A stretch of DNA of 64,000 nucleotides from an uncultured Gammaproteobacteria bacterium (GCA_964442455.1 CAYTZB010000004.1:7425-71424), one strand, 5' to 3'. Numbered from the stretch's first letter, positions 28,542 through 64,000 are shown. Numbers and translations: made by a program. The notes: generated by a model from the letters alone, not told the origin.

Positions 28542-28994
28542 TCAACTAAAGCTTGTCAACCTAGAATTAATAACTTTTCGAATTACTCCCCAAGAAAATC
28601 CTCGGCTTGATAAAAAATTTACTATTTTTTTCTTTCTTGTTTCCTTGTCTAACTTTTCCCATACCCTCTTTCTCTTTTCAATTAATTGAAAAACTAGTTC
28701 TTCGTCATTTAAGCCACTTTCCGAAACCACTTTTTGTGCTAGATCTTTATCAACGCCCTTCTTTACTAGTTCAAGTATCAACATCCGCAGCGATTTGGGG
28801 CGAAAAGTGGTACGCTGTTCAATCCACCAACGGGCAAACGCTTCGTCGTCAACAAGTCCTGCTTTTTTTAATTCTTGGAGGGCTACTTTACAATCCTCCC
28901 CGCTTATTTTTTTTCGGACTAACCACCGCTTAATCTCAAATTCAGAGCGAGGACGAATGGTGGTAAATTTTATGAGGCGATCCAACAATTCCAT
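28542..28994 (-). CDS. recX: RecA regulator RecX
   Basis: It is 150 aa with a three-repeat helical architecture and RecX-like conservation, located downstream of recA. Confidence 0.75.
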   Translation of the reverse strand: MELLDRLIKFTTIRPRSEFEIKRWLVRKKISGEDCKVALQELKKAGLVDDEAFARWWIEQRTTFRPKSLRMLILELVKKGVDKDLAQKVVSESGLNDEELVFQLIEKRKRVWEKLDKETRKKKIVNFLSSRGFSWGVIRKVINSRLTSFS

Positions 28995-29135
28995 AAATTC
29001 GAAGCACGAAGCACTAAATTCGAAACAAACTCAAAATTATAAATACAAAATAACAAAAAAGTTTAGAATTTGAAGCATTTGAATTTAAATATTGTTTAGA
29101 GTTTCGGATTTGAAATTTCGAATTTCCGAGCTTAC
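28995..29135. repeat. family-A AT-rich palindromic intergenic repeat, copy a (inverted relative to copies b-d)
   Basis: It carries aaattcgaaac...ccaaaatt...gaatttaaatattgtttag...atttcgaatttcc with cgaagcacgaagcac arms. Related copies lie at 35110, 38873 and 58784. Confidence 0.5.
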
Positions 29136-29140
29136 ATCGG

Positions 29141-30190
29141 CTACTCTTCACTATTTCCCGTTTCTGCTTCTCCAATTTTTGTTGGCACTTTTTTACTTTC
29201 AGCAGCTGTTCTTCGTGCTTTTTCCTCAACCTCTTTCAAAATCTTTTGATGCTCCCCAAGAAACGCGATTGCCGCTTGGCGACCTTGGCCTATGACTTGG
29301 GTTCCGTAACGAAAGAATGAACCTTGTTTGGTAATAACACCAAACTCTGCTGCTACATCAAGTATTCCTCCTGCTTTAGAAACTCCACCCATATTCATAA
29401 TATCAAATTCTGCAACCCTGAAAGGTGGTGCAACTTTATTTTTAACCACGCGTGCTCTGTGTCGCGAACCAATGACGAGATCTCCATCCTTTATTGTGTC
29501 AATTTTTCGAATATCAATTCGGACCGACGCATAAAATTTAAGCGCTAAACCTCCCGGAGTCACTTCCGGGTTACCAAACATAACGCCTATTTTTTGCCGT
29601 AATTGATTGGTAAAAATGACTACGGTGCGTGACTTGGAAATTGCACCAGTTAACTTTCGAAGCGCTTGCGACATTAAGCGTGCCTGGACACCAATCATCG
29701 CATCGCCCATTTCTCCTTCAAGTTCAGCTCGGGGGACGAGTGCAGCAACTGAATCAATAACCACAACATCAACTGCGCCCGACCTGACAAGCGTTTCTAC
29801 AATCTCAAGCCCTTGCTCTCCCGTATCGGGTTGAGAGATAAGTAACTCATTAAGATTCACACCGATTGATTCGGCTCGAGCAGGGTCCAACGCATGTTCT
29901 GCATCAATAAATGCGGCAGTGCCACCCATCTTTTGGGCTTCTGCTATAACATGAAGCGCTAACGTTGTTTTTCCTGAAGCTTCAGGCCCATAAACCTCGA
30001 CTATTCTGCCCCGAGGAAGACCGCCAACACCAAGGGCTAAATCTAAGGCTATTGAACCTGTGGGAATAACATCTACCTTAAGGCGCGAATCCGCTGCTTC
30101 TCCCAACTTCATAATTGACCCCCGACCCCATTGCTTCTCAATCTGCTCAATTGCCAATTTTATCGCATCAAGTTTTGCTCCCTGTGCCAT
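29141..30190 (-). CDS. recA: recombinase RecA
   Basis: Walker A (GPEASGKTT), the L1/L2 loops and length of 349 aa are unmistakably RecA. Confidence 0.95.
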
Positions 30191-30376: not shown

Positions 30377-30448
30377 TCGGGGTGCCCAGAATTGAACTGG
30401 GACCTTACGCACCCCATGCGCAAATACTAACCGTTATACTACACCCCG
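30377..30448 (-). tRNA. tRNA-Pro (anticodon GGG)
   Basis: A cloverleaf was folded manually. The acceptor stem is CGGGGTG/CACCCCG, the T-arm is CCCAG-TTCAATT-CTGGG and the anticodon stem is TGCGC/GCGTA with loop ATGGGGT. The CCA end is not encoded. Confidence 0.8.
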
Positions 30449-34677: not shown

Positions 34678-35109
34678 CTATCGCTTCGGAGATTGTTTCT
34701 TCCTCCTTGCCTTCCCGCCGGTTCCCACTTTTCGCCGCTCACGAATTCTCGCATCACGAGTTAAAAGCTTTTGTTTCTTGAGCGGTGGGCGAAACTGTTC
34801 GGGAGAGGCATTTGCAAGCGCACGCGCAATGCCCAAAACCGTTGCATCCAACTGACCCCCTTTGCCTCCCCCTTCCACCTTCACACTCACCCAATATTTA
34901 TCAAACGCACCCGCAACCTTAAATGGTCGCTCAAATAAAATTTTTGCAACTACTCCCGGAAAGTAATCGGTAAAGGGTATTCCATTCACGAGGTGCTCAT
35001 CATGACCTTTAAAGAGCCGTACACGCGCAATAGACTCTTTTCGACGCCCTACGGCGAAGATAAAGTCCTTAGTTTTTTTTGGTTCAATAGTTCGTTGTGC
35101 TGTAACCAT
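34678..35109 (-). CDS. rpsI: 30S ribosomal protein S9
   Basis: The S9 signature is present with a C-terminus ending ...KKQSPKR. Confidence 0.9.
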   Translation of the reverse strand: MVTAQRTIEPKKTKDFIFAVGRRKESIARVRLFKGHDEHLVNGIPFTDYFPGVVAKILFERPFKVAGAFDKYWVSVKVEGGGKGGQLDATVLGIARALANASPEQFRPPLKKQKLLTRDARIRERRKVGTGGKARRKKQSPKR

Positions 35110-35286
35110 ATAATTAAAATTCGAAATTCTAATATCGAAATTCGAAACAAATCCAAAATTATAATGTTCTAAATTATAAGCAGAGCTTGTTTCTCGCTAA
35201 CGCTCAAAATAAACGTTTTATCCGCCAGATGGCGGATTGAATTTAAATATTGTTTAGGATTTCGTGCTTCGTGCTTCGAATTTATC
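35110..35286. repeat. family-A palindromic repeat, copy b, between rplM and rpsI; it has an embedded family-B-like segment plus an ATCCGCCAGATGGCGGAT hairpin, and overlaps the last ~10 codons of rplM
   Basis: The sequence similarity to the repeats at 28995, 38873 and 58784 is visible by eye. Confidence 0.45.
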
Positions 35287-35688
35287 GTCATATGTATGTT
35301 CTCCTCCTGCAAACACTTTTAAGCGTGCCATTCTTACCTTCTTGAGACGATTATCCGGCAACATTCCAGAAACGGCATGTTCAATAAGACGCTCCGGATG
35401 CGTGCTTCTCATCTTCGCTGCTGAAATCTCTTTCAGCCCAGAAGGATATCCTGAATATCGCCTATACACCTTTTGTACTTCCTTTCTGCCGGTCAATACT
35501 ACATCTTTGGCATTTGTCACCACAACATAATCACCCGCGTCAAGATGCGGCACATAGGTCCTCTTATGTTTCCCCATTAAAAATGTGGCCACCCCGGTCG
35601 CAAGCCGGCCGAGCACCTTCCCCTTTGCAGAAATCAAATGCCACTCCCTTTTTGTATCCTTTGCCCGTGGTTGGTATGTTGTGCCCAT
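35254..35688 (-). CDS. rplM: 50S ribosomal protein L13
   Basis: The protein is L13 throughout (MGTTYQPRAKDTKREWHLISAKGKVLGRLA...). Confidence 0.9.
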   Translation of the reverse strand: MGTTYQPRAKDTKREWHLISAKGKVLGRLATGVATFLMGKHKRTYVPHLDAGDYVVVTNAKDVVLTGRKEVQKVYRRYSGYPSGLKEISAAKMRSTHPERLIEHAVSGMLPDNRLKKVRMARLKVFAGGEHTYDDKFEARSTKS

Positions 35689-37080: not shown

Positions 37081-37140
37081 ACAAAAAGCCCCGTGTTAAG
37101 GGCCATTATTAAGTCTACACTATTTTTAAACAATACGCAA

Positions 37141-37345
37141 GAACGTACTCATTATCGTGAGTAAGAACCTACGCTTCGCGTAGAACCTTGTTCCCTAACG
37201 AGAGTAAGCAGAGCTTGTTCTCTAACGAGAATAAGAACCTGCTTCGCAGAACCTTGTTTCTCGCTTTGCTCAAAATAAGAACCTCGCCTTCGGCGAGAAC
37301 CTTGTTCCCTTAACGGGAATAAGAGATTCTCTCTTTGCTCGACTC
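37141..37345. repeat. family-B degenerate tandem repeats (about 4-5 units of gaaccttgttcyctaacgRgaRtaag) in the rpoA-rpsD spacer
   Basis: The unit recurs with a period of about 27-45 nt. A related fragment lies at 35166-35205. Confidence 0.45.
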
Positions 37346-37355
37346 CTCTTGTTCT

Positions 37356-38428: not shown

Positions 38429-38872
38429 TTACTTTTGTTGTCTTGCTTGTCCGGTCTGCTCGCCTCGCACTGAGGCGGGCTGGCGGGTTTGCATTTTTGC
38501 AAGCGTTTCTTTCTTAAATGCTCCAACAGTCCTTCTCTTTCCACGCTTGGTACGAGCATTGGTTCTTGTCCTTTGACCTCTAACCGGCAACCCTCTCTGA
38601 TGTCTCACACCACGATATGATTTTATCGTGACGAGTCGGCCTATATCTTCTCTCACGGACCTCTGTAAATCTCCCTCAATTATTATCCCCTCCAAGGCCT
38701 TTGTAAGGTGATTTATTTGCTCGTCGGTGAGCTCTTTAACTCTGCGCTCTTGCGGAATATTCACTTTTGTAAGAATCTGCCGGCTCATAGGCCACCCGAC
38801 CCCATACAAAAGGGTGAGTGCATAATCTACTCTGGCATTCTCTGGTAATTCAACTCCTGCTATCCTAGCCAT
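38429..38872 (-). CDS. rpsM: 30S ribosomal protein S13 with a ~30-aa GC-rich C-terminal extension (start at MARIAGV; the upstream ORF-track extension is readthrough into the repeat)
   Basis: The S13 N-terminus MARIAGVELP is present. The C-terminal tail is encoded by GC-rich hairpin DNA at 38441-38500. Confidence 0.9.
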   Translation of the reverse strand: MARIAGVELPENARVDYALTLLYGVGWPMSRQILTKVNIPQERRVKELTDEQINHLTKALEGIIIEGDLQRSVREDIGRLVTIKSYRGVRHQRGLPVRGQRTRTNARTKRGKRRTVGAFKKETLAKMQTRQPASVRGEQTGQARQQK

Positions 38873-39001
38873 ATAACCTCCTTCGGAGGAAATCCGAAAT
38901 TCTAAATCCGAAATACGAAACGTTTCGAATCTTATATTTTTATAATTTGTTTCGGATTTCGATATTCGTGCTTCGAATTTCCAACTTTGCACACAAAGTT
39001 G
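38873..39001. repeat. family-A palindromic repeat, copy c, between rpmJ and rpsM, including a perfect 8-bp-stem hairpin CCAACTTTGCACACAAAGTTGG
   Basis: It is visibly similar to the copies at 28995, 35110 and 58784. Confidence 0.45.
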
Positions 39002-39115
39002 GCTATCCTTGTCTTTGTTTGTGTTTAGGATTTATGCAAATCACGTACAAGACTCCTCGCCTTTTAACGAGTTTGCAATTCCGACATCTCACTTTGATTG
39101 ATGCTTGTACCTTCA
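39002..39115 (-). CDS. rpmJ: 50S ribosomal protein L36
   Basis: Manual translation gives [37 protein letters not shown] (37 aa, the zinc-ribbon C+ form). It is absent from the ORF track because it is under 60 aa. Confidence 0.85.
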
Positions 39116-39180
39116 TAATTGAAAATGGCTAAATGGTTATATGGTCACATAGTTTAACAATTAGCCATGCAACCATTTAA

Positions 39181-46473: not shown

Positions 46474-46565
46474 GTTCGCTCCTTTTAGTCGAAAATAATA
46501 CCGATACTACAAATTTCAAATTATTAATTATTGGTTATTTATTGGTAATTATTTGAAATTGGTAC
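46474..46565. repeat. family-C AT-rich repeat in the rpsC-rplP spacer, related to the element at 58183-58291
   Basis: Shared blocks are tttagtcgWaaataWtac, atactacaaatt..tcaaat, attggtWatttatt and ggtacttatt. Confidence 0.45.
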
Positions 46566-55330: not shown

Positions 55331-55858
55331 TTAGGCCATTAAATCTCTTACTGGAACTACTCTCTGATTCTCTGGATTTCCTTTTACTCTCTCAATGAAT
55401 TCAGCAGGAGTTAATGCTCTAATTCCTCGTAACTCTAAAAACTTCCTAGCACCTGGTAAATCAACAATTGCAAGTATGAGCTCTTCTATTGCTTTTTGGG
55501 GGATTCTTCCTTTGTCAAATGGGAGTAACCTATCCTGATTTAAGACAATTGTGGCATATGCCTCATCTTTTTTGTCTGCTGGGAAAATTATTGCTGCTTT
55601 GGAAAAAGAAGAAAGTTCTCCTTCTCCTACGAGCCAAAACTCAGCATCACGAGCTTCCATTATTCTCTGGGTCTCTTTTGCCAACGGTGTAAACGCATCC
55701 TGAGTCTCACTTTCTGCTAAAACATGGATTATCTCACTCGCATAATCGATAAGCAGCTGGATCATCTGATGTAGCTGTTCGACTCTACCAGGAGTTAGGG
55801 GAATACCAACTAATCCCCTCATTTTACCGTGTCTTATAGACAAAAATTCGTTTCCCAT
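55331..55858 (-). CDS. hypothetical protein (175 aa), island ORF D
   Basis: It is an intact ORF with no recognisable family, followed by a hairpin at 55294-55316 and the terminator. Confidence 0.45.
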   Translation of the reverse strand: MGNEFLSIRHGKMRGLVGIPLTPGRVEQLHQMIQLLIDYASEIIHVLAESETQDAFTPLAKETQRIMEARDAEFWLVGEGELSSFSKAAIIFPADKKDEAYATIVLNQDRLLPFDKGRIPQKAIEELILAIVDLPGARKFLELRGIRALTPAEFIERVKGNPENQRVVPVRDLMA

Positions 55859-55916
55859 TGTATAACTTATTCGAGATTATACACCCACCCTGGTTGCCAT
55901 TGCCAGGGAGAAGTAA

Positions 55917-56273
55917 CTACTTGTTGTAGAGGAATATTTTTAATCCAATGTTCGAGTCCATACTGTGTTGCGCTTTTAGTGGTTCCACCTCTTCCGGGGG
56001 ATGACGCGTTAAATCACCATAATCACACTCTCGAAGTCGTGCATCCTTAATTATGGGAATATTTCTTCCTTCAAAAGCAATTTTTGCGGTAGTATACGAT
56101 CTCTGTAGATCGGAGCAAAAGATAGCATCAAATTGTTCATTTTTATGCCGTTCACCTAGCTGCTTCGCTTGCTCTTTCCCAAGTTCTGATAACTCAACAT
56201 CAAAGTGCCCCGAAGAATGTTTGCTCTCGTTATCAAGCGACGTCGCGTGAGGTTCAAAAACTATAGTAACCAT
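55917..56273 (-). CDS. histidine-phosphatase-fold (SixA/PGAM-like) protein, truncated and degenerate (118 aa; PHA in place of RHG)
   Basis: The N-terminal beta-strand plus EPHATS aligns to the RHG motif, and CSDLQRSYTTAKI aligns to the SPLxRAxQTAxI block. The C-terminal half of the fold is missing. Confidence 0.4.
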   Translation of the reverse strand: MVTIVFEPHATSLDNESKHSSGHFDVELSELGKEQAKQLGERHKNEQFDAIFCSDLQRSYTTAKIAFEGRNIPIIKDARLRECDYGDLTRHPPEEVEPLKAQHSMDSNIGLKIFLYNK

Positions 56274-56523
56274 CAGAAGATTTTATCTGCTCTTCCATAA
56301 ATTTACCATAAATTCTTATGGTAAGTCGTTGAATAATTTGATAAAATAAGGTACGCCTGCCACATTGCAGGCTCTTTTTGCAAAGGGGCTTTCTTTGACA
56401 TTCTTGCACTGTGGCATTGAACAAGAGGGCTGCCTTTTAAACCTCTTGTTTTTTGTGGCAGGAAGCAAGAAATTGTTTTTATTAATAATTTTTTGAATTT
56501 ATTTGTTTCGATGTATCGATACA

Positions 56524-56928
56524 TTAAAACATAACTGTGGGATTGTTAAGTGTTACGCGGAAGTCACTTTTACCTACCCTCAGTCTCTCTAGATCATAGG
56601 GAAATCCAGATAGGGCGTAATACTCTTCACCTTGTTTGTTCACCTTTCTCCTTAATTCATGTAACACACGACGGCCATCATGAGTTGTAAGAATGGCTGA
56701 TGGAACAAAACCTTCTGTGCTTTGATCCACACGGAATAAGGCGAGGAGTACTTGTTGTTCTTGTTCTATCTCCTTTAACAACACACCATCTAACCTTCCA
56801 TCACTAATCAAATTTACTACTCCTTCGAAGACTAAACCATTTGTCTTGTCTTCAACGCGAATGACCCCTGAAAAAGTTGATGTAATCTCTTCTCTGTTCT
56901 TTGTCCCATTACCATTTTTTTCCCTCAT
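56524..56928 (-). CDS. hypothetical protein (134 aa), island ORF B
   Basis: It is an intact ORF. Its stop overlaps the start of a doubtful 73-aa ORF (TAATG). Confidence 0.4.
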   Translation of the reverse strand: MREKNGNGTKNREEITSTFSGVIRVEDKTNGLVFEGVVNLISDGRLDGVLLKEIEQEQQVLLALFRVDQSTEGFVPSAILTTHDGRRVLHELRRKVNKQGEEYYALSGFPYDLERLRVGKSDFRVTLNNPTVMF

Positions 56929-56973
56929 ATCTTACTCCTATCTCTTTTCTTTGCAATAGCTGGCTAAGAAACT

Positions 56974-57693
56974 CTAAGAGCTTTGGGTAATAATCCGTAC
57001 CGGTTGGAATAGTAGTGCATTCCTAAGTGCTGTTGCAACAAATTCGTCAGGGCTAGGAAGTGACAAACTACCGTATTCTGTCTCAATTACTCTCGTGTTC
57101 GTTGCAAAGTCTGTTCGTAATCTTCCAGGCCCAAGATGCAAATGTTCTTCAGTTGGCGTAATTGTTACCAGCTCATATTCTACCTCTCCAACTCTTAATA
57201 AAAGTTGTGCAAGAGGAGACCTATTTTCTTCAAAAACAAATATCTGTCTTGCATGTTCGAATGAACTACCGCTCAGCATAATAGGAGGAGAAGCATCTTG
57301 CGTTATTAAGACTCCACCTCTTAAATCAAGAATAGTGAACATATTATCTTTTAATCCGTTTTTGGATGTATCCGAAATGACTTCAACTCCTACTATTTTT
57401 CCATTTGATCGACTAATTACTAAGTCTGTTGTTGTTCTTTCGTGTTCAGATTGATGATAAAATGAAACTACATCCTCTCTTTCTCTTTGTACCTTTTTAA
57501 CATCATATCGTATTCCCCTTATTTGCGCCCCTTTGCTTCTATCTGTGAGAAGTTTATGATTTTGGTTAACATAATCGAGATGTTGTGAAAATCTTGTGCG
57601 AATCGCTTGGGGAATACGTGCAATCTGTGCTTGGGTAAGAGGAAAATATACTAATTGATTCTCAGGAGAGAGAGTACTTTCTGGTCTTGTCAT
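56974..57693 (-). CDS. hypothetical protein (239 aa), island ORF A, starting 10 nt after the rpsG stop
   Basis: It is an intact ORF with no recognisable family. No terminator separates it from rpsG. Confidence 0.5.
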   Translation of the reverse strand: MTRPESTLSPENQLVYFPLTQAQIARIPQAIRTRFSQHLDYVNQNHKLLTDRSKGAQIRGIRYDVKKVQREREDVVSFYHQSEHERTTTDLVISRSNGKIVGVEVISDTSKNGLKDNMFTILDLRGGVLITQDASPPIMLSGSSFEHARQIFVFEENRSPLAQLLLRVGEVEYELVTITPTEEHLHLGPGRLRTDFATNTRVIETEYGSLSLPSPDEFVATALRNALLFQPVRIITQSS

Positions 57694-58182: not shown

Positions 58183-58291
58183 TGTCCTCTTTTTAGTCGT
58201 AAATATTACAAATACTACAAATTACAAATTTCAAATATTCTGAATTCTTAATTGATTGGTATTTATTTGTCATTGGTATTATTGGTACTTA
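58183..58291. repeat. family-C AT-rich repeat in the rpsL-rpsG spacer (see 46474-46565)
   Basis: It shares the blocks atactacaaatt..tcaaat, attggtatttatt and ggtacttatt. Confidence 0.45.
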
Positions 58292-58783
58292 TTAAGAAGC
58301 ACTAGCTTCCTGTATTACTGCTGCAGCTCTAGGCGCTCCCCCTCCCTCCGGGCCAGAGGTCCCTCCGGGCCGGCGGCCCTCACGTCGTGTCCCATATTGT
58401 GAACGGGAAGTCTTTCTTCCCACGACACCAGTGGTATCGAATTTCCCTCGTACAATATGATACTTAACCCCTGGAAGATCTCTTACACGACCGCCTCGAA
58501 CCAAAACTATCGAATGCTCTGCCAACTCGTGTCCTTCTCCTGGGATATAGGCAGTAACCTCTTGTTTATTCGAAAGTCGCACACGGGCAACTTTACGCAG
58601 CGCTGAATTCGGTTTCTTGGGGGTCATCGTGCGGACAGCCAATACCACTCCCCGTTTAAAGGGGCTCGGTAGTTGGGAAAACCGTCGCCGTCTCGCATTG
58701 AACCAACGCCGCAACGCCGTACTTCGGCTCTTTCCATGCACTTTTCTCCTTCCCTTTCTGGTGAGTTGATGAATCGTAGGCAT
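58292..58783 (-). CDS. rpsL: 30S ribosomal protein S12 with an N-terminal ~12-aa insertion and a GC-rich ~30-aa C-terminal tail
   Basis: The S12 core is present ([24 protein letters not shown]). The tail [24 protein letters not shown] is encoded by the direct repeat ccctccgggcc at 58321-58375. Confidence 0.95.
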
Positions 58784-58941
58784 AAATAATTAAATCCGAA
58801 ATTCGAATATCGAAATCCTAAACAAATTCCAAATTTTAAATTCAAATGATTGAAACAGTTTGAAATTTAGAAAATTTGAATTTAATTATTGTTTCGAATT
58901 TCGTGCTTAGAATTTCGAATTTCCAAAATTATATCACAATT
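58784..58941. repeat. family-A palindromic repeat, copy d, filling the rpoC-rpsL spacer
   Basis: It is visibly similar to the copies at 28995, 35110 and 38873, with inverted arms ccgaaattcgaatatcgaaat / atttcgaatttcg. Confidence 0.5.
58928..58936 (-). promoter_or_regulatory. candidate extended -10 promoter (TGaTATAAT on the minus strand) for the str operon, directly after the rpoC stop
   Basis: The motif is read from the reverse complement. No convincing -35 was found. Confidence 0.3.
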
Positions 58942-61900
58942 TTAACCTCGGGACAATTGTTGAGAGGGAAGTGCTGCACGCTCCGGAGTCACGGGAATAA
59001 GGCGGCCAATAATGACATTTTCTTTCAAGCCCAACAATTTATCTTCCTTGCCAAGAAGTGCTGCTTCGGTCAACACCTTGGTCGTCTCTTGGAATGAGGC
59101 AGCAGAGAGCCACGATGCGGTAAAGAGGGACGCTTTGGTAATACCCAAAATAACCACCTGGGCGGTTGCTGGTTCACCTCCTGCCGCAAGCACTCGCTCA
59201 TTCTCTTCTGTAAACCACGCTTTATCAACCAATTCCCGTGGCAACAGGATGGTATCTCCAGGGCTAATCACCTGCACTTTATCACTCATTTTCCTGACGA
59301 TGACCTCGAAATGTTTGTCGTTAATAGGAATACCTTGACTCTCATATACCGCCTGGATTTCAGAGATAAGATACTCTTGAGAAGCAAGCAGCCCCCGAAT
59401 ATTCAGTACTTCTTTGACATCAAGCATACCTGACGCAAGCTGTGTACCCGCCGCAATGAGGTCGCCATCGGACAACCGCAGTTGGGCAGTCTTGGGAATA
59501 ATATACTCCCGTTCTTCCGGCGGTTTGACATCAACACTGCGTACTCTTACTTTCCAAGAATCTTCTCGCTCAACAACTTCAACTTTGCCTGAAATTTCAG
59601 AAAGCGGTGAGACCACCTTTGGAATACGAGTTTCAAAGAGTTCCTCGACTCGGGGCAATCCTTTGGTCACATCAAGTCCCACAATTCCACCGGTATGTTT
59701 CACTCTCATGGTCAACTGTGTGCCTGGTTCACCGATAGATTGAGCCGCAACCACCCCTACCGGGGTACCCACTTCCACCCGCTTTTTGGTGGCCAAATCC
59801 CATCCGTAGCAGGCAGCACACATACCATATCGCGCAATGCACGTGAGAGGGGAGCGAACTAACACTTCATCTATCTTTTCCTCCTCAAGGTGAGTGAGCA
59901 CCTCTTCTGTTATTTCTTCTCCCGCCCGCACTATAAAGTGTTTCCCATTCTTAAGAGGAATATTAACTGCTGCCGTCCTTCCTAAGAGCCGACCCGTAAA
60001 CGAAACTGACCTATCCTTTCTCCGCATGACTACCCCTTCGCTCGTCCCACAATCTTCTCCCCTTACAATCATATCGTGTGCGACATCGACAAGTCGGCGT
60101 GTCAGATACCCAGCATCAGCAGTCTTGAGTGCCTGATCGGTCAATCCTTTACGTGATCCACGAGCGGTGGTGACGTACTCAAAGATAGAGAGACCTTCCT
60201 TAAAGTTTGATTTGGTCGGCAGTTCTACCACTCTTCCAAGGGGATCAACTACCAATCCCCTCATTGCCGCAATTTGTTTAACCTGCTCTCGTGAAGCACG
60301 ACCAACCCCTGCTTCAATAATAACCTTAATAGGATTCGCGGGCGGGAACACCTCCCACGTTCTGTCTGCTAATTCCTCTGTCGCCTCAATCCACACTTCT
60401 TGTGTTAATCGTCTTTTTTCATCTTCAGTGATTAAACCCGATCGGTAGTTTTCTTCAATTTCTGCAACTTGGCTATTTGCCCCCTCTATCATCTTATCTT
60501 TCTCGGGAAGAATGACTGCATCGGTAATACCAAACGAGAGACCGGATACTGTTCCGGCAGCGAATCCAATATTTTTGATGTTATCAATCATTTCTAAGAT
60601 TTCCGCCCTTGACCCCCGTGCAAAGACTGTGTTAAAGAGACGTTTGAGTACCCCTGCCGAAACCGGCTCATTCACAAATTCCACCCACCCTGGCAAGAGT
60701 TCATTGAAGAGAATACGACCAACTGTAGTGGTTATCTTTTTACCCTCAAGAAGAACGTCTATCTCTTGGCGAACTCCAAGCTTGCCTGTTTGGTATATAT
60801 AGACCGCTTCGCCAGCATCACACAGGACTTCCCGACGAGCTTGTTCGGTGTTAACACTCGTTAAGTAATATACGCCGAGCGCCATCTCTTTTGTTGCAGG
60901 AATTGTAATAGGAGAGCCATCAGCGGGCTTAAGGAGATTGTGCTCCGGCAACATGAGAGAGCGGGCTTCCTCTTTTGCCTTTTCAGCTAGAGGTACATGC
61001 ACTGCCATTTGGTCTCCATCAAAATCCGCATTGTATCCTGCACACACACACGGATGAATACGAATGGCGTTTCCTTCAATAAGAACCGGATAAAATGCCT
61101 GAATACCCAATTTGTGGAGTGTCGGCGCTCGGTTCAGCAACACCGGATGATCCCGCGAAACCTCCTCCAAAATATCAAACACTTCGGGGAGCCGTTTCTC
61201 AAGCATACTCTTTGCACTTTTAACATTCGGTGCAATACCCTGCGTAATCATTTCTCGCAACACAAACGGTTTAAACAGTTCTAGGGCCATCTCCTTTGGA
61301 AGCCCGCACTGATGGAGCGAAAGTTCTGGTCCTACCACGATGACAGACCGACCTGAATAGTCAACTCTTTTCCCAAGTAAATTCTGGCGAAATCTTCCCT
61401 GTTTGCCTCGCAGCATATCCGAAAGTGAACGGAGAGGCTGGCGTGTTCTTCCGCGACGCATCGTTTGGCGCTGGCTTGCATCAATGAGCGCGTCGACTGC
61501 TTCCTGGAGCATCCGCTTTTCATTACGCAAAATAATCTCCGGAGCCCCGAGCTCCAGTAAATGACGCAGTCGGTTATTCCTGTTGATAATACGTCGGTAC
61601 AAATCATTCAAGTCACTCGTGGCAAATCTACCTCCTGAGAGCTGCACCATGGGCCGCAGATCGGGAGGAAGCACCGGCAATACCCGCAGCACAAGCCATG
61701 AAGGGGCACTTCCGGCTTTGCGCATTCCTTCAACTAAGCGCAGCCGTTGTGCAAGTTTTATTGCACGGCCTCCCATTGCTTCGTTGACTTGAGAACGAAG
61801 CTGAGCTGCTAACTCCTCTAAGTTGATACTCTCAAGAAGATCGGCTATAGCCTCAGCACCCATTTTTGCCACAAAGAATGACGCGACCTCGTGGTCAAAT

Positions 61901-62658
61901 AACTCTTGATATCCCTCCTCTGATAAAAAGGTACGAGGAGCTACTACTCGAACCAACGCCACAAGTCGGTCAAACAGTTCACGAGTCTGTGCAGCTGCCG
62001 CAGCTGCTGTCTCGGTCACTGTGGCTTTGCGCTTGCGCGCTTCAAGTTCCAATTCCTCAACTGCTAAACTCAGTTGTTCTTTTGCTTTAATTTCTTTTTT
62101 CTTTTGGGCAACCAACGTGTTAAACTCGCGCTCTACAGCAGCAATACGGGAGCTTAATTGCTCCTGCTGCCGGTGTTCAAGTGACTGCCACTCCTTCTCA
62201 AGGCGGGTAATGGCAACTTTGCGCTCCTTCTCGTCAACTGAGAGAACTACATACCGTGCCAGGTATATCACTTGCTCAATTGTTTTAGAAGGTAAATCAA
62301 GAAGGGCTGAAAGCTTAGAAGGGGTACTTTTGAAAAACCACACATGCGCCACAGGAGAGGATAAGGTAATGTGACCCATGCGTTCTCGGCGCACCCGTGA
62401 TTGCGTCACTTCAACACCACATTTATCACACACCACCCCACGATATCGTATTCTTTTATACTTCCCGCAGTAACATTCCCAATCTTTTGTGGGTCCAAAA
62501 ATACGCTCGTCAAACAACCCATTTTTCTCGGGCTTGAGCGTCCGGTAGTTTATCGTCTCGGGTTTCGTCACCTCGCCACGGGACCACAGCTTAACCTGCT
62601 CGGGGGAGGCAACCTTAATAACCAATGATGTAAAATCAGCAAGATTCTTGACTTCCAT
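58942..62658 (-). CDS. rpoC: DNA-directed RNA polymerase subunit beta' (start at MEVKNLADF, 1 nt after the rpoB stop)
   Basis: The zinc-binding motif [23 protein letters not shown], the NADFDGD catalytic motif and the full-length beta' architecture are present. Confidence 0.97.
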
Positions 62659-62659
62659 A

Positions 62660-64000
62660 TTATTTTGTTTCCTCAACTTCCATCGTTCCCTCGGGTGCAG
62701 CCAACTCGCTTGAGTCTGCAGCAACTGTTGCACCCGACGCAGCGGCGAGTTCTTCGGCAAGGCGAGCTGTCTCCTCTTCCGCAACAACTTCTGTCGCAAC
62801 TATTTGCCCTTTCGGCTCAACAACCAGTCCAAGCGCATTGAGTTCACGCATGAGTACCTTAAATGAGTCGGGAATAGTTGCCTCAGGAATATCCGTCCCC
62901 TTGACAATTGCCTCAAATGCTCTCGCGCGACCCACCACATCGTCAGATTTGATGGTAATCATTTCCTGTAAGGTATGGGCTGCACGATGTGCCTCGAGCG
63001 CCCACACTTCCATCTCACCAAGTCGTTGTCCTCCCATCTGCGCTTTACCACCCAAGGGCTGTTGTGTGACGAGCGAATATGGGCCGGTTGAACGCGCGTG
63101 CATTTTGTCCTCAACCATATGAATAAGTTTCATAATATAACCTACACCCACCACCGTTTCTTGCTCAAGGGGTTGTCCAGTTCGTCCATCAAACAGTCGT
63201 GTTTTCCCAGACACAGGAAGCCCTGCAACTTTTAATTTCTCTTCAATAAGAGAGGTGGGAATACGCTCAAACACAGGAATCGCGGCTACCTCGTTCTGTT
63301 TTACAAGCGCCCATCCCAAATGTGCCTCAAGTAGTTGCCCCAAATTCATACGGGCAAGAACAGACAGGGGAGAAATAATGATATCAATTGGTGTCCCATC
63401 AGAGAGGTAGGGCATGTCGGAGGCCGGCACAATTTTTGAAATGACTCCTTTATTTCCATGGCGTCCTGCAAGTTTGTCCCCTACAGTGACTTTGCGAATT
63501 TGTGCAACTTTTATAATGATTTTCTTGAATGTCCCTGGCTCCAGCTCATCTCCCTTCTCCCTATCTAAAATTGTCAATCCTATCACCGTTCCTCGCTCTC
63601 CGTGAGGCATACGCAGTGACGTATCCCGTACTTCGCGCGCTTTCTCACCAAAGATGGCGCGTAGGAGCCGTTCCTCGGGGGTGAGTTCTGTCTCTCCTTT
63701 GGGTTGAATTTTCCCAACCAAAATGTCATTTGGTCCCACTTCGCTTCCCACTATCACAATGCCGTCCTCTCCCAAATTCGCCAGATCTGTCTCGGCGACG
63801 TTGGGAATATCGCGTGTCAACTCCTCAGGACCAAGTTTTGTCTCAACCACCTCTGCCTCATACTCCTCAATATGAATAGAAGTCAGTACATCCTCCTTGA
63901 CTAACCTGTCAGAAATCACGATTGCGTCTTCGTACCCCAATCCTTCAAATGAACAGTACGCAATCAGTAAATTCTGCCCGAGAGCAAGTTCACCATTTCC
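62660..64000 (-). CDS. rpoB: DNA-directed RNA polymerase subunit beta, C-terminal part (5'-truncated by the window end)
   Basis: The rpoB C-terminal conserved regions are present. The reading frame stays open to position 64000. Confidence 0.95.

Follow-up and report, generated by a model that had tools for sequence, protein, structure and literature searches.

The window, by which we mean the whole 64,000-nucleotide stretch of DNA analysed here, groups in a RecA comparison with Candidatus Microgenomates (CPR), and it carries four AT-rich imperfect palindromes in the spacers recA/recX, rplM/rpsI, rpmJ/rpsM and rpoC/rpsL. The original prediction had placed palindromes at these sites; they are present there, and a repeat search ranked them as the top direct- and inverted-repeat families of the window. 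The genes flanking the four copies, all on the minus strand, were correctly named, with recA, recX, rplM, rpsI, rpsM, rpsL and rpoC being recognized by Pfam and rpmJ as an ORF. The features of the four sites are as follows.

28542-28994, minus strand: recX (Pfam), flanking copy a
28995-29135, no strand assigned: copy a, a decayed heptad palindrome filling the recA/recX spacer (arm-profile E 7.8e-10), with arms at about 28995-29038 and 29090-29125
29141-30190, minus strand: recA (Pfam), flanking copy a
34678-35109, minus strand: rpsI (Pfam), flanking copy b
35110-35286, no strand assigned: copy b, rplM/rpsI, with a remodelled interior (arm-profile E 1.4e-9 and 1.2e-3) and arms at 35117-35159 and 35240-35289
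35220-35237, no strand assigned: G+C-rich mini-hairpin atccgcc-agat-ggcggat, within the copy b loop
35254-35286, minus strand: arm-encoded 3' end of rplM, translated as the tail ..KFEARSTKS plus stop
35254-35688, minus strand: rplM (Pfam), flanking copy b
38429-38872, minus strand: rpsM (Pfam), flanking copy c
38884-38981, no strand assigned: copy c, a short version, rpmJ/rpsM (arm-profile E 8.5e-10 and 1.6e-3)
38981-39002, minus strand: 22-nt hairpin CCAACTTTGTGTGCAAAGTTGG, directly 3' of the rpmJ stop and outside the element
39003-39116, minus strand: rpmJ (ORF), flanking copy c
58292-58783, minus strand: rpsL (Pfam), flanking copy d
58792-58924, no strand assigned: copy d, rpoC/rpsL (arm-profile E 1e-6 and 1e-4), stopping 8 nt before the rpsL start
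58928-58956, minus strand: promoter-like TTGTCC-17-TG-TATAAT just 5' of copy d, a consensus match only (10 of 12 positions)
58942-62799, minus strand: rpoC (Pfam), flanking copy d

As seen in this list, all four sites stood, although the cores of copies c and d are slightly narrower than had been predicted. The remainder of their spacers is made up of the separate 22-nt hairpin after rpmJ, the rpsM Shine-Dalgarno region and the promoter-like site. The view that each palindrome occupies its whole spacer was essentially right, and copy b even encodes the final 9 codons and the stop of rplM; in the 144-residue product of this gene, the Pfam L13 domain does not extend beyond residue 131. Transcription from the promoter-like site, if it occurs, would give rpsL a 5' UTR consisting almost entirely of copy d.

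Several other features of the window were recorded in their own right. The rpsM Shine-Dalgarno sequence GGAGG lies within a small self-complementary hairpin, CCUCCGAAGGAGG (38873-38889), directly after copy c. Proteins S13 (147 aa, 38429-38872) and S12 (163 aa, 58292-58783) are unusually long, and their Pfam domains are partial. A single minus-strand tRNA gene (30377-30448), the sole Rfam match of the window, is found just upstream of recA. From rpsG to fusA (55331-57693) there are five ORFs of 73-239 aa, which is unusual in a str operon. The rpoA/rpsD spacer (37087-37355) contains tandem short G+C hairpins, TCTCGCCGAAGGCGAGG, TCTACGCGAAGCGTAGG and TCTGCGAAGCAGG, each of them followed by TTCTTA..; these repeated units were called terminator-like by a scan. 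There is also a second family of AT-rich hairpins built from other heptads (..AATACCA ATGACAA ATAAATA CCAAT.. pairing with ..ATTTGTAGTATTGGTA..), with copies at 46474-46565 and 58183-58291 of the window and at 4255-4355 of the relative L201, which end in TTCGACTAAAAGGAG before the start codon. This second family fills two more ribosomal-operon spacers of the window, including rpsL/rpsG, and in L201 it occupies the rpmJ/rpsM spacer, which in the window holds copy c.

The four copies share their sequence, as had been claimed. Copies a, b and c each contain a perfect match to the 16-mer AAATTCGAAGCACGAA, and copy d matches it with a single mismatch; with up to 3 mismatches allowed, this 16-mer occurs 10 times in the window versus the 1.1 expected by shuffling, and 8 of these 10 matches fall inside the four copies. 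A second string, GAAATYCKAAACAA, has 12 window matches versus 4.3 expected. When an arm profile was run with nhmmer over the 64-kb window, only the four copies were matched (E 8e-10 to 1.6e-3), and the same profile yielded zero matches in 1.03 Mb of unrelated metagenome DNA, consisting of loci of distant homologues (<=53% identity, partial match) of a 548-aa anthranilate-synthase-like protein. The statement that copy a is inverted relative to the others holds for the GTGCTTCG motif, but this motif is a weak marker of orientation, because either arm of the family members can carry that heptad.

Further copies, which the original prediction had suggested looking for, do occur elsewhere. One 16-mer of the repeat was found at no fewer than 119 loci, spread over about 20 phylum-level lineages of MAGs and more than 100 species, with one genome per species scanned; by our own arithmetic, the chance expectation for a 16-mer in 596 Gb is roughly 280. 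Among the matches listed, nearly all run on into the same sequence, and at 83 occurrences a second, inverted arm lies at most 350 nt away. This second arm, which was not selected by the search pattern, has the strong consensus AAATCCGAAATTCGAATATCGAAATCCGAAACAAAT, read in heptads as AAATCCG AAATTCG AATATCG AAATCCG AAACAAAT... Given the shared flanking sequence and the strong consensus of the unselected arm, we judged the matches to be non-random. The elements measure 94-423 nt (median about 148), and most are imperfect palindromes of about 100-230 bp. Both arms are composed of AA-NNN-CG heptads, such as AAATTCG, AAGCACG, AAATCCG and AATATCG, with strict 7-nt periodicity, and their consensuses differ slightly, with AAGCACG on one arm and AATATCG on the other. 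Several genomes carry several loci each among the matches listed.

The hosts, as named in MAG record titles and with single-contig mis-binning being possible, in particular for one record labelled Nanoarchaeia, include Planctomycetota, Thermodesulfobacteriota and other former delta-proteobacteria, Omnitrophota, Patescibacteria (Saccharibacteria, Dojkabacteria, Harrisonbacteria, Parcubacteria), Verrucomicrobiota, Kiritimatiellia, Victivallales, Aminicenantes, Binatia, Ignavibacteria, WOR-3, KSB1, Hydrogenedentes, Nitrospiraceae, Deferribacteres and gamma-proteobacteria, among them the cultured Wenzhouxiangella sp. 15190. The 18-mer AAATTCGAAGCACGAAAT had no match in IMG/VR. A second 16-mer matched 39 IMG/VR viral contigs, of which about 20 hold true arms; there is therefore some presence on viral or proviral contigs, and a viral vector is at most possible. 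A blastn search of the consensus element against the plasmids of PLSDB gave no match. Full-text literature searches with four sequence strings of the element returned unrelated primer matches only, and a keyword search (MITE, heptad, STRR, IVP) yielded no account of the family, parts of which specialists may already know beyond the literature searched.

Some elements carry additional DNA. In several phyla, G+C-rich palindromes (e.g., tctacctgccctgcttgcgcaggcaaggcaggtagg) are nested in the AT-rich arms, as at positions 11150-11190 of L201 and also in L039, L031, L070, L101 and L003; judged from their sequence, they look like a second small palindromic element inserting into the AT-rich one. Some loops contain 350-420 nt of unrelated G+C-rich, non-IVP DNA (L093, 5590-5980; L089, 3200-3660; L048, 2440-2620), and the hairpin loop seems to accept other inserts.

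Comparison of the same spacers in relatives of the window, as proposed in the original prediction, revealed presence/absence polymorphism at recA/recX and rplM/rpsI. The recA/recX spacer reads as follows (RecA identity to the window in brackets).

Window: 146-nt spacer with copy a
L200 (97%): empty, ..gagTAAATGgag.., stop and start codons abutting or overlapping
L250 (85%): empty, stop and start overlapping
L249 (83%): empty, stop and start overlapping
L248 (81%): empty, with a stop-start gap of 8 nt
L201 (85%): filled, an element with a nested G+C-rich palindrome

The spacer is thus empty in four of the five relatives. At rplM/rpsI, the element is found in both the window and L200 in the same orientation, between flanking genes that are 87-96% identical; the arms are similarly conserved, and indels have reshaped the interior, the mini-hairpin of copy b (35220-35237) being missing from the L200 orthologue. 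L201 retains one arm only at this site, as the final rplM codons, with a spacer of 1 nt. The C-terminal tail of L13, ..KFEARSTKS.., is arm-encoded in the window, L200 and L201. No arms were detected in L248-L250 (32 kb in total), and an exact look-up of the window RecX sequence retrieved no record.

Next, the RNA-level properties of the family were examined. Copies b, c and d folded better than their shuffled counterparts (z of -4.00, -3.74 and -3.23, respectively), whereas copy a did not (z of -0.99), so that the predicted folding applies to three of the four; copy a is a decayed palindrome. Among the matches listed, 84 family members fold as long hairpins, with a small contrast in free energy between strands (54 versus 30, mean -0.9 kcal/mol). 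The neighbors are co-directional for 50 of the 63 elements with both neighbors called, and relative to these neighbors the orientation of the elements is evenly split, 25:25. In low-GC genomes the GCACG arm at first seemed to lie preferentially 5' of downstream genes, but this bias was gone in the full sample. Arms belonging to one element (identity 0.713) do not resemble each other more closely than arms taken from different elements (0.742). RNAalifold found no consensus structure in 39 aligned hairpins, and in a specified 36-pair arm helix 81.2% of cells pair versus 83.3% after shuffling partners among sequences; the covariation score, too, is lower than in the shuffled set. The AA..CG frame of the heptads is conserved, and the central triplets are variable and mostly unpaired. 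With no covariation, arm pairing is thus a by-product of the shared inverted-repeat consensus and not of compensatory evolution. At the gathering threshold, Rfam matched in the window the tRNA only; at a permissive E-value, L082 matched nothing in Rfam but generic hairpin models of miRNA precursors, with scores far below their thresholds. No terminator-like site (a G+C-rich stem with a T run) was found at any of the four copies.

These data bear on the suggestion that the palindromes are a shared 5'-UTR or attenuator structure, that is, a host regulatory RNA (attenuator, 5'-UTR structure or translational operator) of translation-machinery and recombination operons. Such a role would agree with the position of the copies in transcribed spacers, ending 0-22 nt before start codons, with the good folding of copies b, c and d, and with the small hairpin holding the rpsM Shine-Dalgarno that copy c adjoins. 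However, the element is found between unrelated genes in over 100 species, without orientation preference, close relatives have the same spacers without the element, and there are neither compensatory changes nor an Rfam family match. We therefore consider a regulatory RNA highly improbable; there is no indication of a regulator role for the copies, and this reading is not supported.

Some family copies have 350-420 nt between their arms. In Wenzhouxiangella sp. 15190 (L087), the arms enclose an ORF of 121 aa that matches PF05635 ("23S rRNA-intervening sequence protein", E 1.3e-13) and TIGR02436 ("four helix bundle protein", E 3e-18), and the protein also matches PDB 2RLD, deposited as 5 chains (E 3.7e-12). 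An Ignavibacteria locus (L038) has an IVP architecture like that of L087, with the arm profile matching one flank. Three IVP genes that were retrieved via the protein alone, namely L241 (between a VWA-domain gene and moxR), L245 (between spoT and ridA) and L247 (between leuC and leuD), are all bracketed by heptad arms of the window's family, with arm-profile E values of 1e-9 to 5e-12 on one side and 1e-5 to 1e-6 on the other. The arm profile therefore matches both flanks of the IVP genes in L087, L241, L245 and L247, and the arms of the window match this same profile. Among the matches listed, physical linkage to IVP concerns only 2 of about 155 arms in genome loci, and the remaining links come from targeted look-ups within one IVP subfamily. 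A tblastn search with 120 IVP proteins detected no IVP gene in the window, nor in 28.6 kb of L200 and L201.

The full element is about 480 bp long and consists of an Avd-like four-helix-bundle gene of about 120 codons (IVP, or S23p) between inverted A-rich heptad arms of about 60 nt, in the order AA-NNN-CG heptads, GAAACAAAT and the IVP start region ..AATGACC... The inner motif of the hairpins, AATGACCnAAA (..CAAATGACCAAAAC), corresponds to the start-codon region of IVP (ATG ACC GAA..), and the sequence just 3' of the IVP stop codon is the complement of this inner motif; AATGACnAAA is retained by 36 of the 84 hairpins. Since both the arms and the inner motif match the borders of the IVP gene, the hairpins of about 140 nt can be read as the two arms of the gene-bearing element joined together.

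Members of the family also occur in rRNA. In L029 (Saccharibacteria), gene-less copies are located at the tips of four 23S rRNA helices (model positions about 170, 283, 583 and 1893), and these copies inside 23S rRNA also argue against the regulatory RNA discussed above. At 6567-7193 of L029, after the point where the 23S rRNA match stops, there is a LAGLIDADG-type ORF (..GWIVGFVDGEGCF..), so that this 23S gene carries four hairpin insertions and probably an intron. Copies are gained and lost both in short spacers of co-transcribed genes and at rRNA helix tips.

IVSs have been known since 1990. They are stem-loop "selfish" elements that are cut by RNase III without re-ligation, some of which carry an S23p gene, and it is an open question where they come from, how they spread and what the encoded protein does (PMC4990558). 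CPR rRNA genes contain many short ORF-less insertions at known IVS sites, together with 23S_rRNA_IVP ORFs (PMC11270868). Like the window family, the IVSs of Salmonella, Leptospira, Coxiella and alpha-proteobacteria have complementary termini and form a stem-loop (PMC4990558); they also have a higher AT content than their host, are patchily distributed, are believed to spread by horizontal transfer, and are either PF05635-bearing or short and ORF-less (PMC4990558; PMC11270868). Unlike them, the window copies are found in spacers of protein genes and not in rRNA; they have no IVP gene, as is the case for many described IVSs, and arm heptads and near-identity across phyla are undescribed for IVSs in the literature searched. 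On these grounds, the four repeats are probably gene-less, internally deleted copies of the selfish element behind 23S rRNA IVSs. The hairpin arms are homologous to the arms flanking IVP genes, and family members reside in rRNA helices; we infer that the hairpins arose from the gene-bearing element by deletion. Because the window copies are located between protein-coding genes, they are IVS-type elements outside rRNA and not IVSs in the strict sense.

Heptad arrays were also found around IVP genes of another kind. A tblastn search of IVP against plasmids returned eight cyanobacterial records, all below 60% identity (32-43%), and in all six records examined the IVP gene is bracketed by inverted tandem arrays of a different heptad.

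L252: heptad AATTCAA, arm complementarity 31/31
L253: heptad AATTCAA, arm complementarity 35/35
L254: heptad GCAAGTC, an imperfect 33-nt inverted pair
L255: heptad TAATTCG, arm complementarity 33/33
L251 (Anabaena cylindrica pANACY.01): heptad AAGTAAA, IVP gene between cas2 and cas1 on the opposite strand
L256 (Nostoc sp. TCL26-01 plasmid): heptad AAGTAAA, IVP gene between cas2 and cas1 on the opposite strand

Autocorrelation at lag 7 is 0.85-1.0 in five of the six arrays, that of L251 having been identified separately, and in L252, L253 and L255 the downstream array begins at the IVP stop codon. Together with the AA-NNN-CG family, five heptad unit sequences bracket IVP genes, which suggests that IVP elements generally have such arrays; our literature search found no paper describing heptad arrays around IVP genes. 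The location between cas2 and cas1 in L251 and L256 may explain why PF05635 appears as cas-associated in metagenome surveys (PMC3936711). In L252 (Nostoc flagelliforme), a 10-nt direct repeat, GGAGTTGGGT, occurs at 563-572 and 1087-1096, outside the arms and at distances of 14 nt (left) and 5 nt (right); it could be a target duplication or chance. Tandem heptamers known as STRR are a familiar, unexplained feature of these cyanobacteria, and STRR heptanucleotide repeats were reportedly noted by Vioque in 1997 in the cyanobacterial RNase P RNA gene. STRR are tandem 7-nt repeats that are intergenic and located at a structural-RNA helix, and in this they resemble the IVP heptads, to which they may be linked.

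Neither a target-site duplication nor a conserved target motif was found at 84 junctions of the family, nor in the comparison of filled and empty recA/recX sites, and for this reason transposition is a hypothesis. Of the three roles offered in the original prediction, a MITE-like mobile element nevertheless came closest, as this is a multicopy inverted-repeat family with gene-bearing relatives and presence/absence among close relatives; the likeness stops at the lack of a target-site duplication and at the associated gene, which encodes an Avd-like four-helix bundle and no known transposase. A classical MITE moved in trans by a DDE/HUH transposase, with the IVP gene as a mere passenger of some copies, could explain the long terminal inverted repeats, the small size, the absence of an ORF and the many copies, as well as the polymorphism and the variable interiors with nested inserts. 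It is, however, improbable in view of the 84 junctions, of ends that vary by whole heptads and are not sharply defined, and of the fact that a transposase lies between the arms in no locus. Moreover, heptad arms are also found around IVP genes of distant lineages, so that it is IVP, and not a transposase, with which the arms are associated.

Other small repeats were considered. REP/BIME, whose 20-40-nt palindromes bear a GTAG or CGTC tag (PMC3733652), were rejected, the arms being about 60 nt, AT-rich and heptad-built with ends lacking either tag. Integron attC, Rho utilisation sites, a CsrA sponge and H-NS sites were dropped on reading the sequence. The Correia/NEMIS elements of Neisseria and enterobacterial ERIC are imperfect palindromes of 100-170 bp in transcribed intergenic regions, present or absent between strains, and their transcripts are processed by RNase III or RNase E. 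Their inverted-repeat ends are well defined and accompanied by a TA duplication, neither element occurs in more than a single bacterial family, and they have no known link to IVP. Their sequences are unrelated to the window family, the likeness being in size, palindromic form and intergenic site.

Drift alone hardly accounts for arms that are nearly identical from phylum to phylum, and the arms could have a selected function. One explanation, to which the nucleoid-protein site of the original prediction belongs, is that proteins bind the heptad arrays, as DNA or RNA, and that the host retains them for its own purposes, in RNase III processing that uncouples adjacent cistrons, as a stabiliser of mRNA ends or as a nucleoid/partition-type site. 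It is favored by an arm sequence that is conserved across phyla even in its mismatched, unpaired triplets, by the strict 7-nt periodicity of the arms, and by the persistence of copies at rplM/rpsI in two lineages despite turnover of the interior. A patchy distribution in close relatives, with no arms in the 32 kb of L248-L250, the decay of copy a, a gene context that is inconsistent across species and the absence of a terminator-like signature at the elements all weigh against it, making host use of this sort an improbable reason for their maintenance. Protein binding to the heptads as such is possible, but none of these data point towards a nucleoid function in the host.

With the four repeats read as deleted IVS-type elements, a course of events can be proposed. 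Deletion of the IVP gene would leave a hairpin of about 100-230 bp, as in the window. Because the arms pair, the transcript would fold into a self-contained stem-loop, leaving the flanking RNA undisturbed by analogy with rRNA IVSs. RNase III would be expected to cut the stem; in rRNA the insert would thereby be excised, and between protein genes the cut would separate or re-end the cistrons of recA-recX, rplM-rpsI, rpmJ-rpsM and rpoC-rpsL. Helix tips and intercistronic spacers, where such a stem-loop would do little harm, would be the places at which hairpins persist. Side effects on the host operons are probable, with the ancestral stop/start coupling of recA-recX having been lost and L13 having acquired a new tail, and the rpsL leader may be entirely hairpin.

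Proteins of PF05635 are homologous to Avd of diversity-generating retroelements, which is a pentameric four-helix bundle (PMC10053308). Unlike Avd systems, the elements examined have no reverse transcriptase, template repeat or variable repeat beside them. To our knowledge, Avd is not flanked by heptad arrays. A wider reading, which we offer tentatively and consider unlikely, is that IVP genes with inverted heptad arrays form a distinct class of mobile element that is cross-phylum and possibly cross-domain. Here, the Avd-like pentamer would recognise the 7-nt arrays in DNA or RNA and drive or guard mobility; the transcript may be excised by RNase III and copied back by a reverse transcriptase; and the CPR operon hairpins, the short rRNA IVSs and perhaps STRR would be non-autonomous derivatives. 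In its favor are the five heptad units seen around IVP genes of the six cyanobacterial plasmids and of this family, and the conserved AA..CG frame of each heptad with its variable, unpaired central triplet.

IVSs themselves are already known, and what is new here is that IVS-type elements occur outside rRNA, have a definite heptad architecture and are very widely distributed. The finding ties together rRNA IVSs, the very abundant "four helix bundle protein" genes and a huge family of intergenic hairpins, three subjects that are as a rule considered separately, and it makes the anatomy of the element, inverted heptad arrays around an Avd-like gene, recognisable. Such hairpins break assemblies, lengthen annotated genes, as with the L13 tail, and can pass for regulatory RNAs. 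The naturally filled and empty sites, together with cultured hosts (Wenzhouxiangella, Nostoc, Anabaena), offer material for testing processing, protein binding and mobility. Overall, these results describe an element that, in minimal CPR genomes, colonises the operon junctions that are tightest and most essential.
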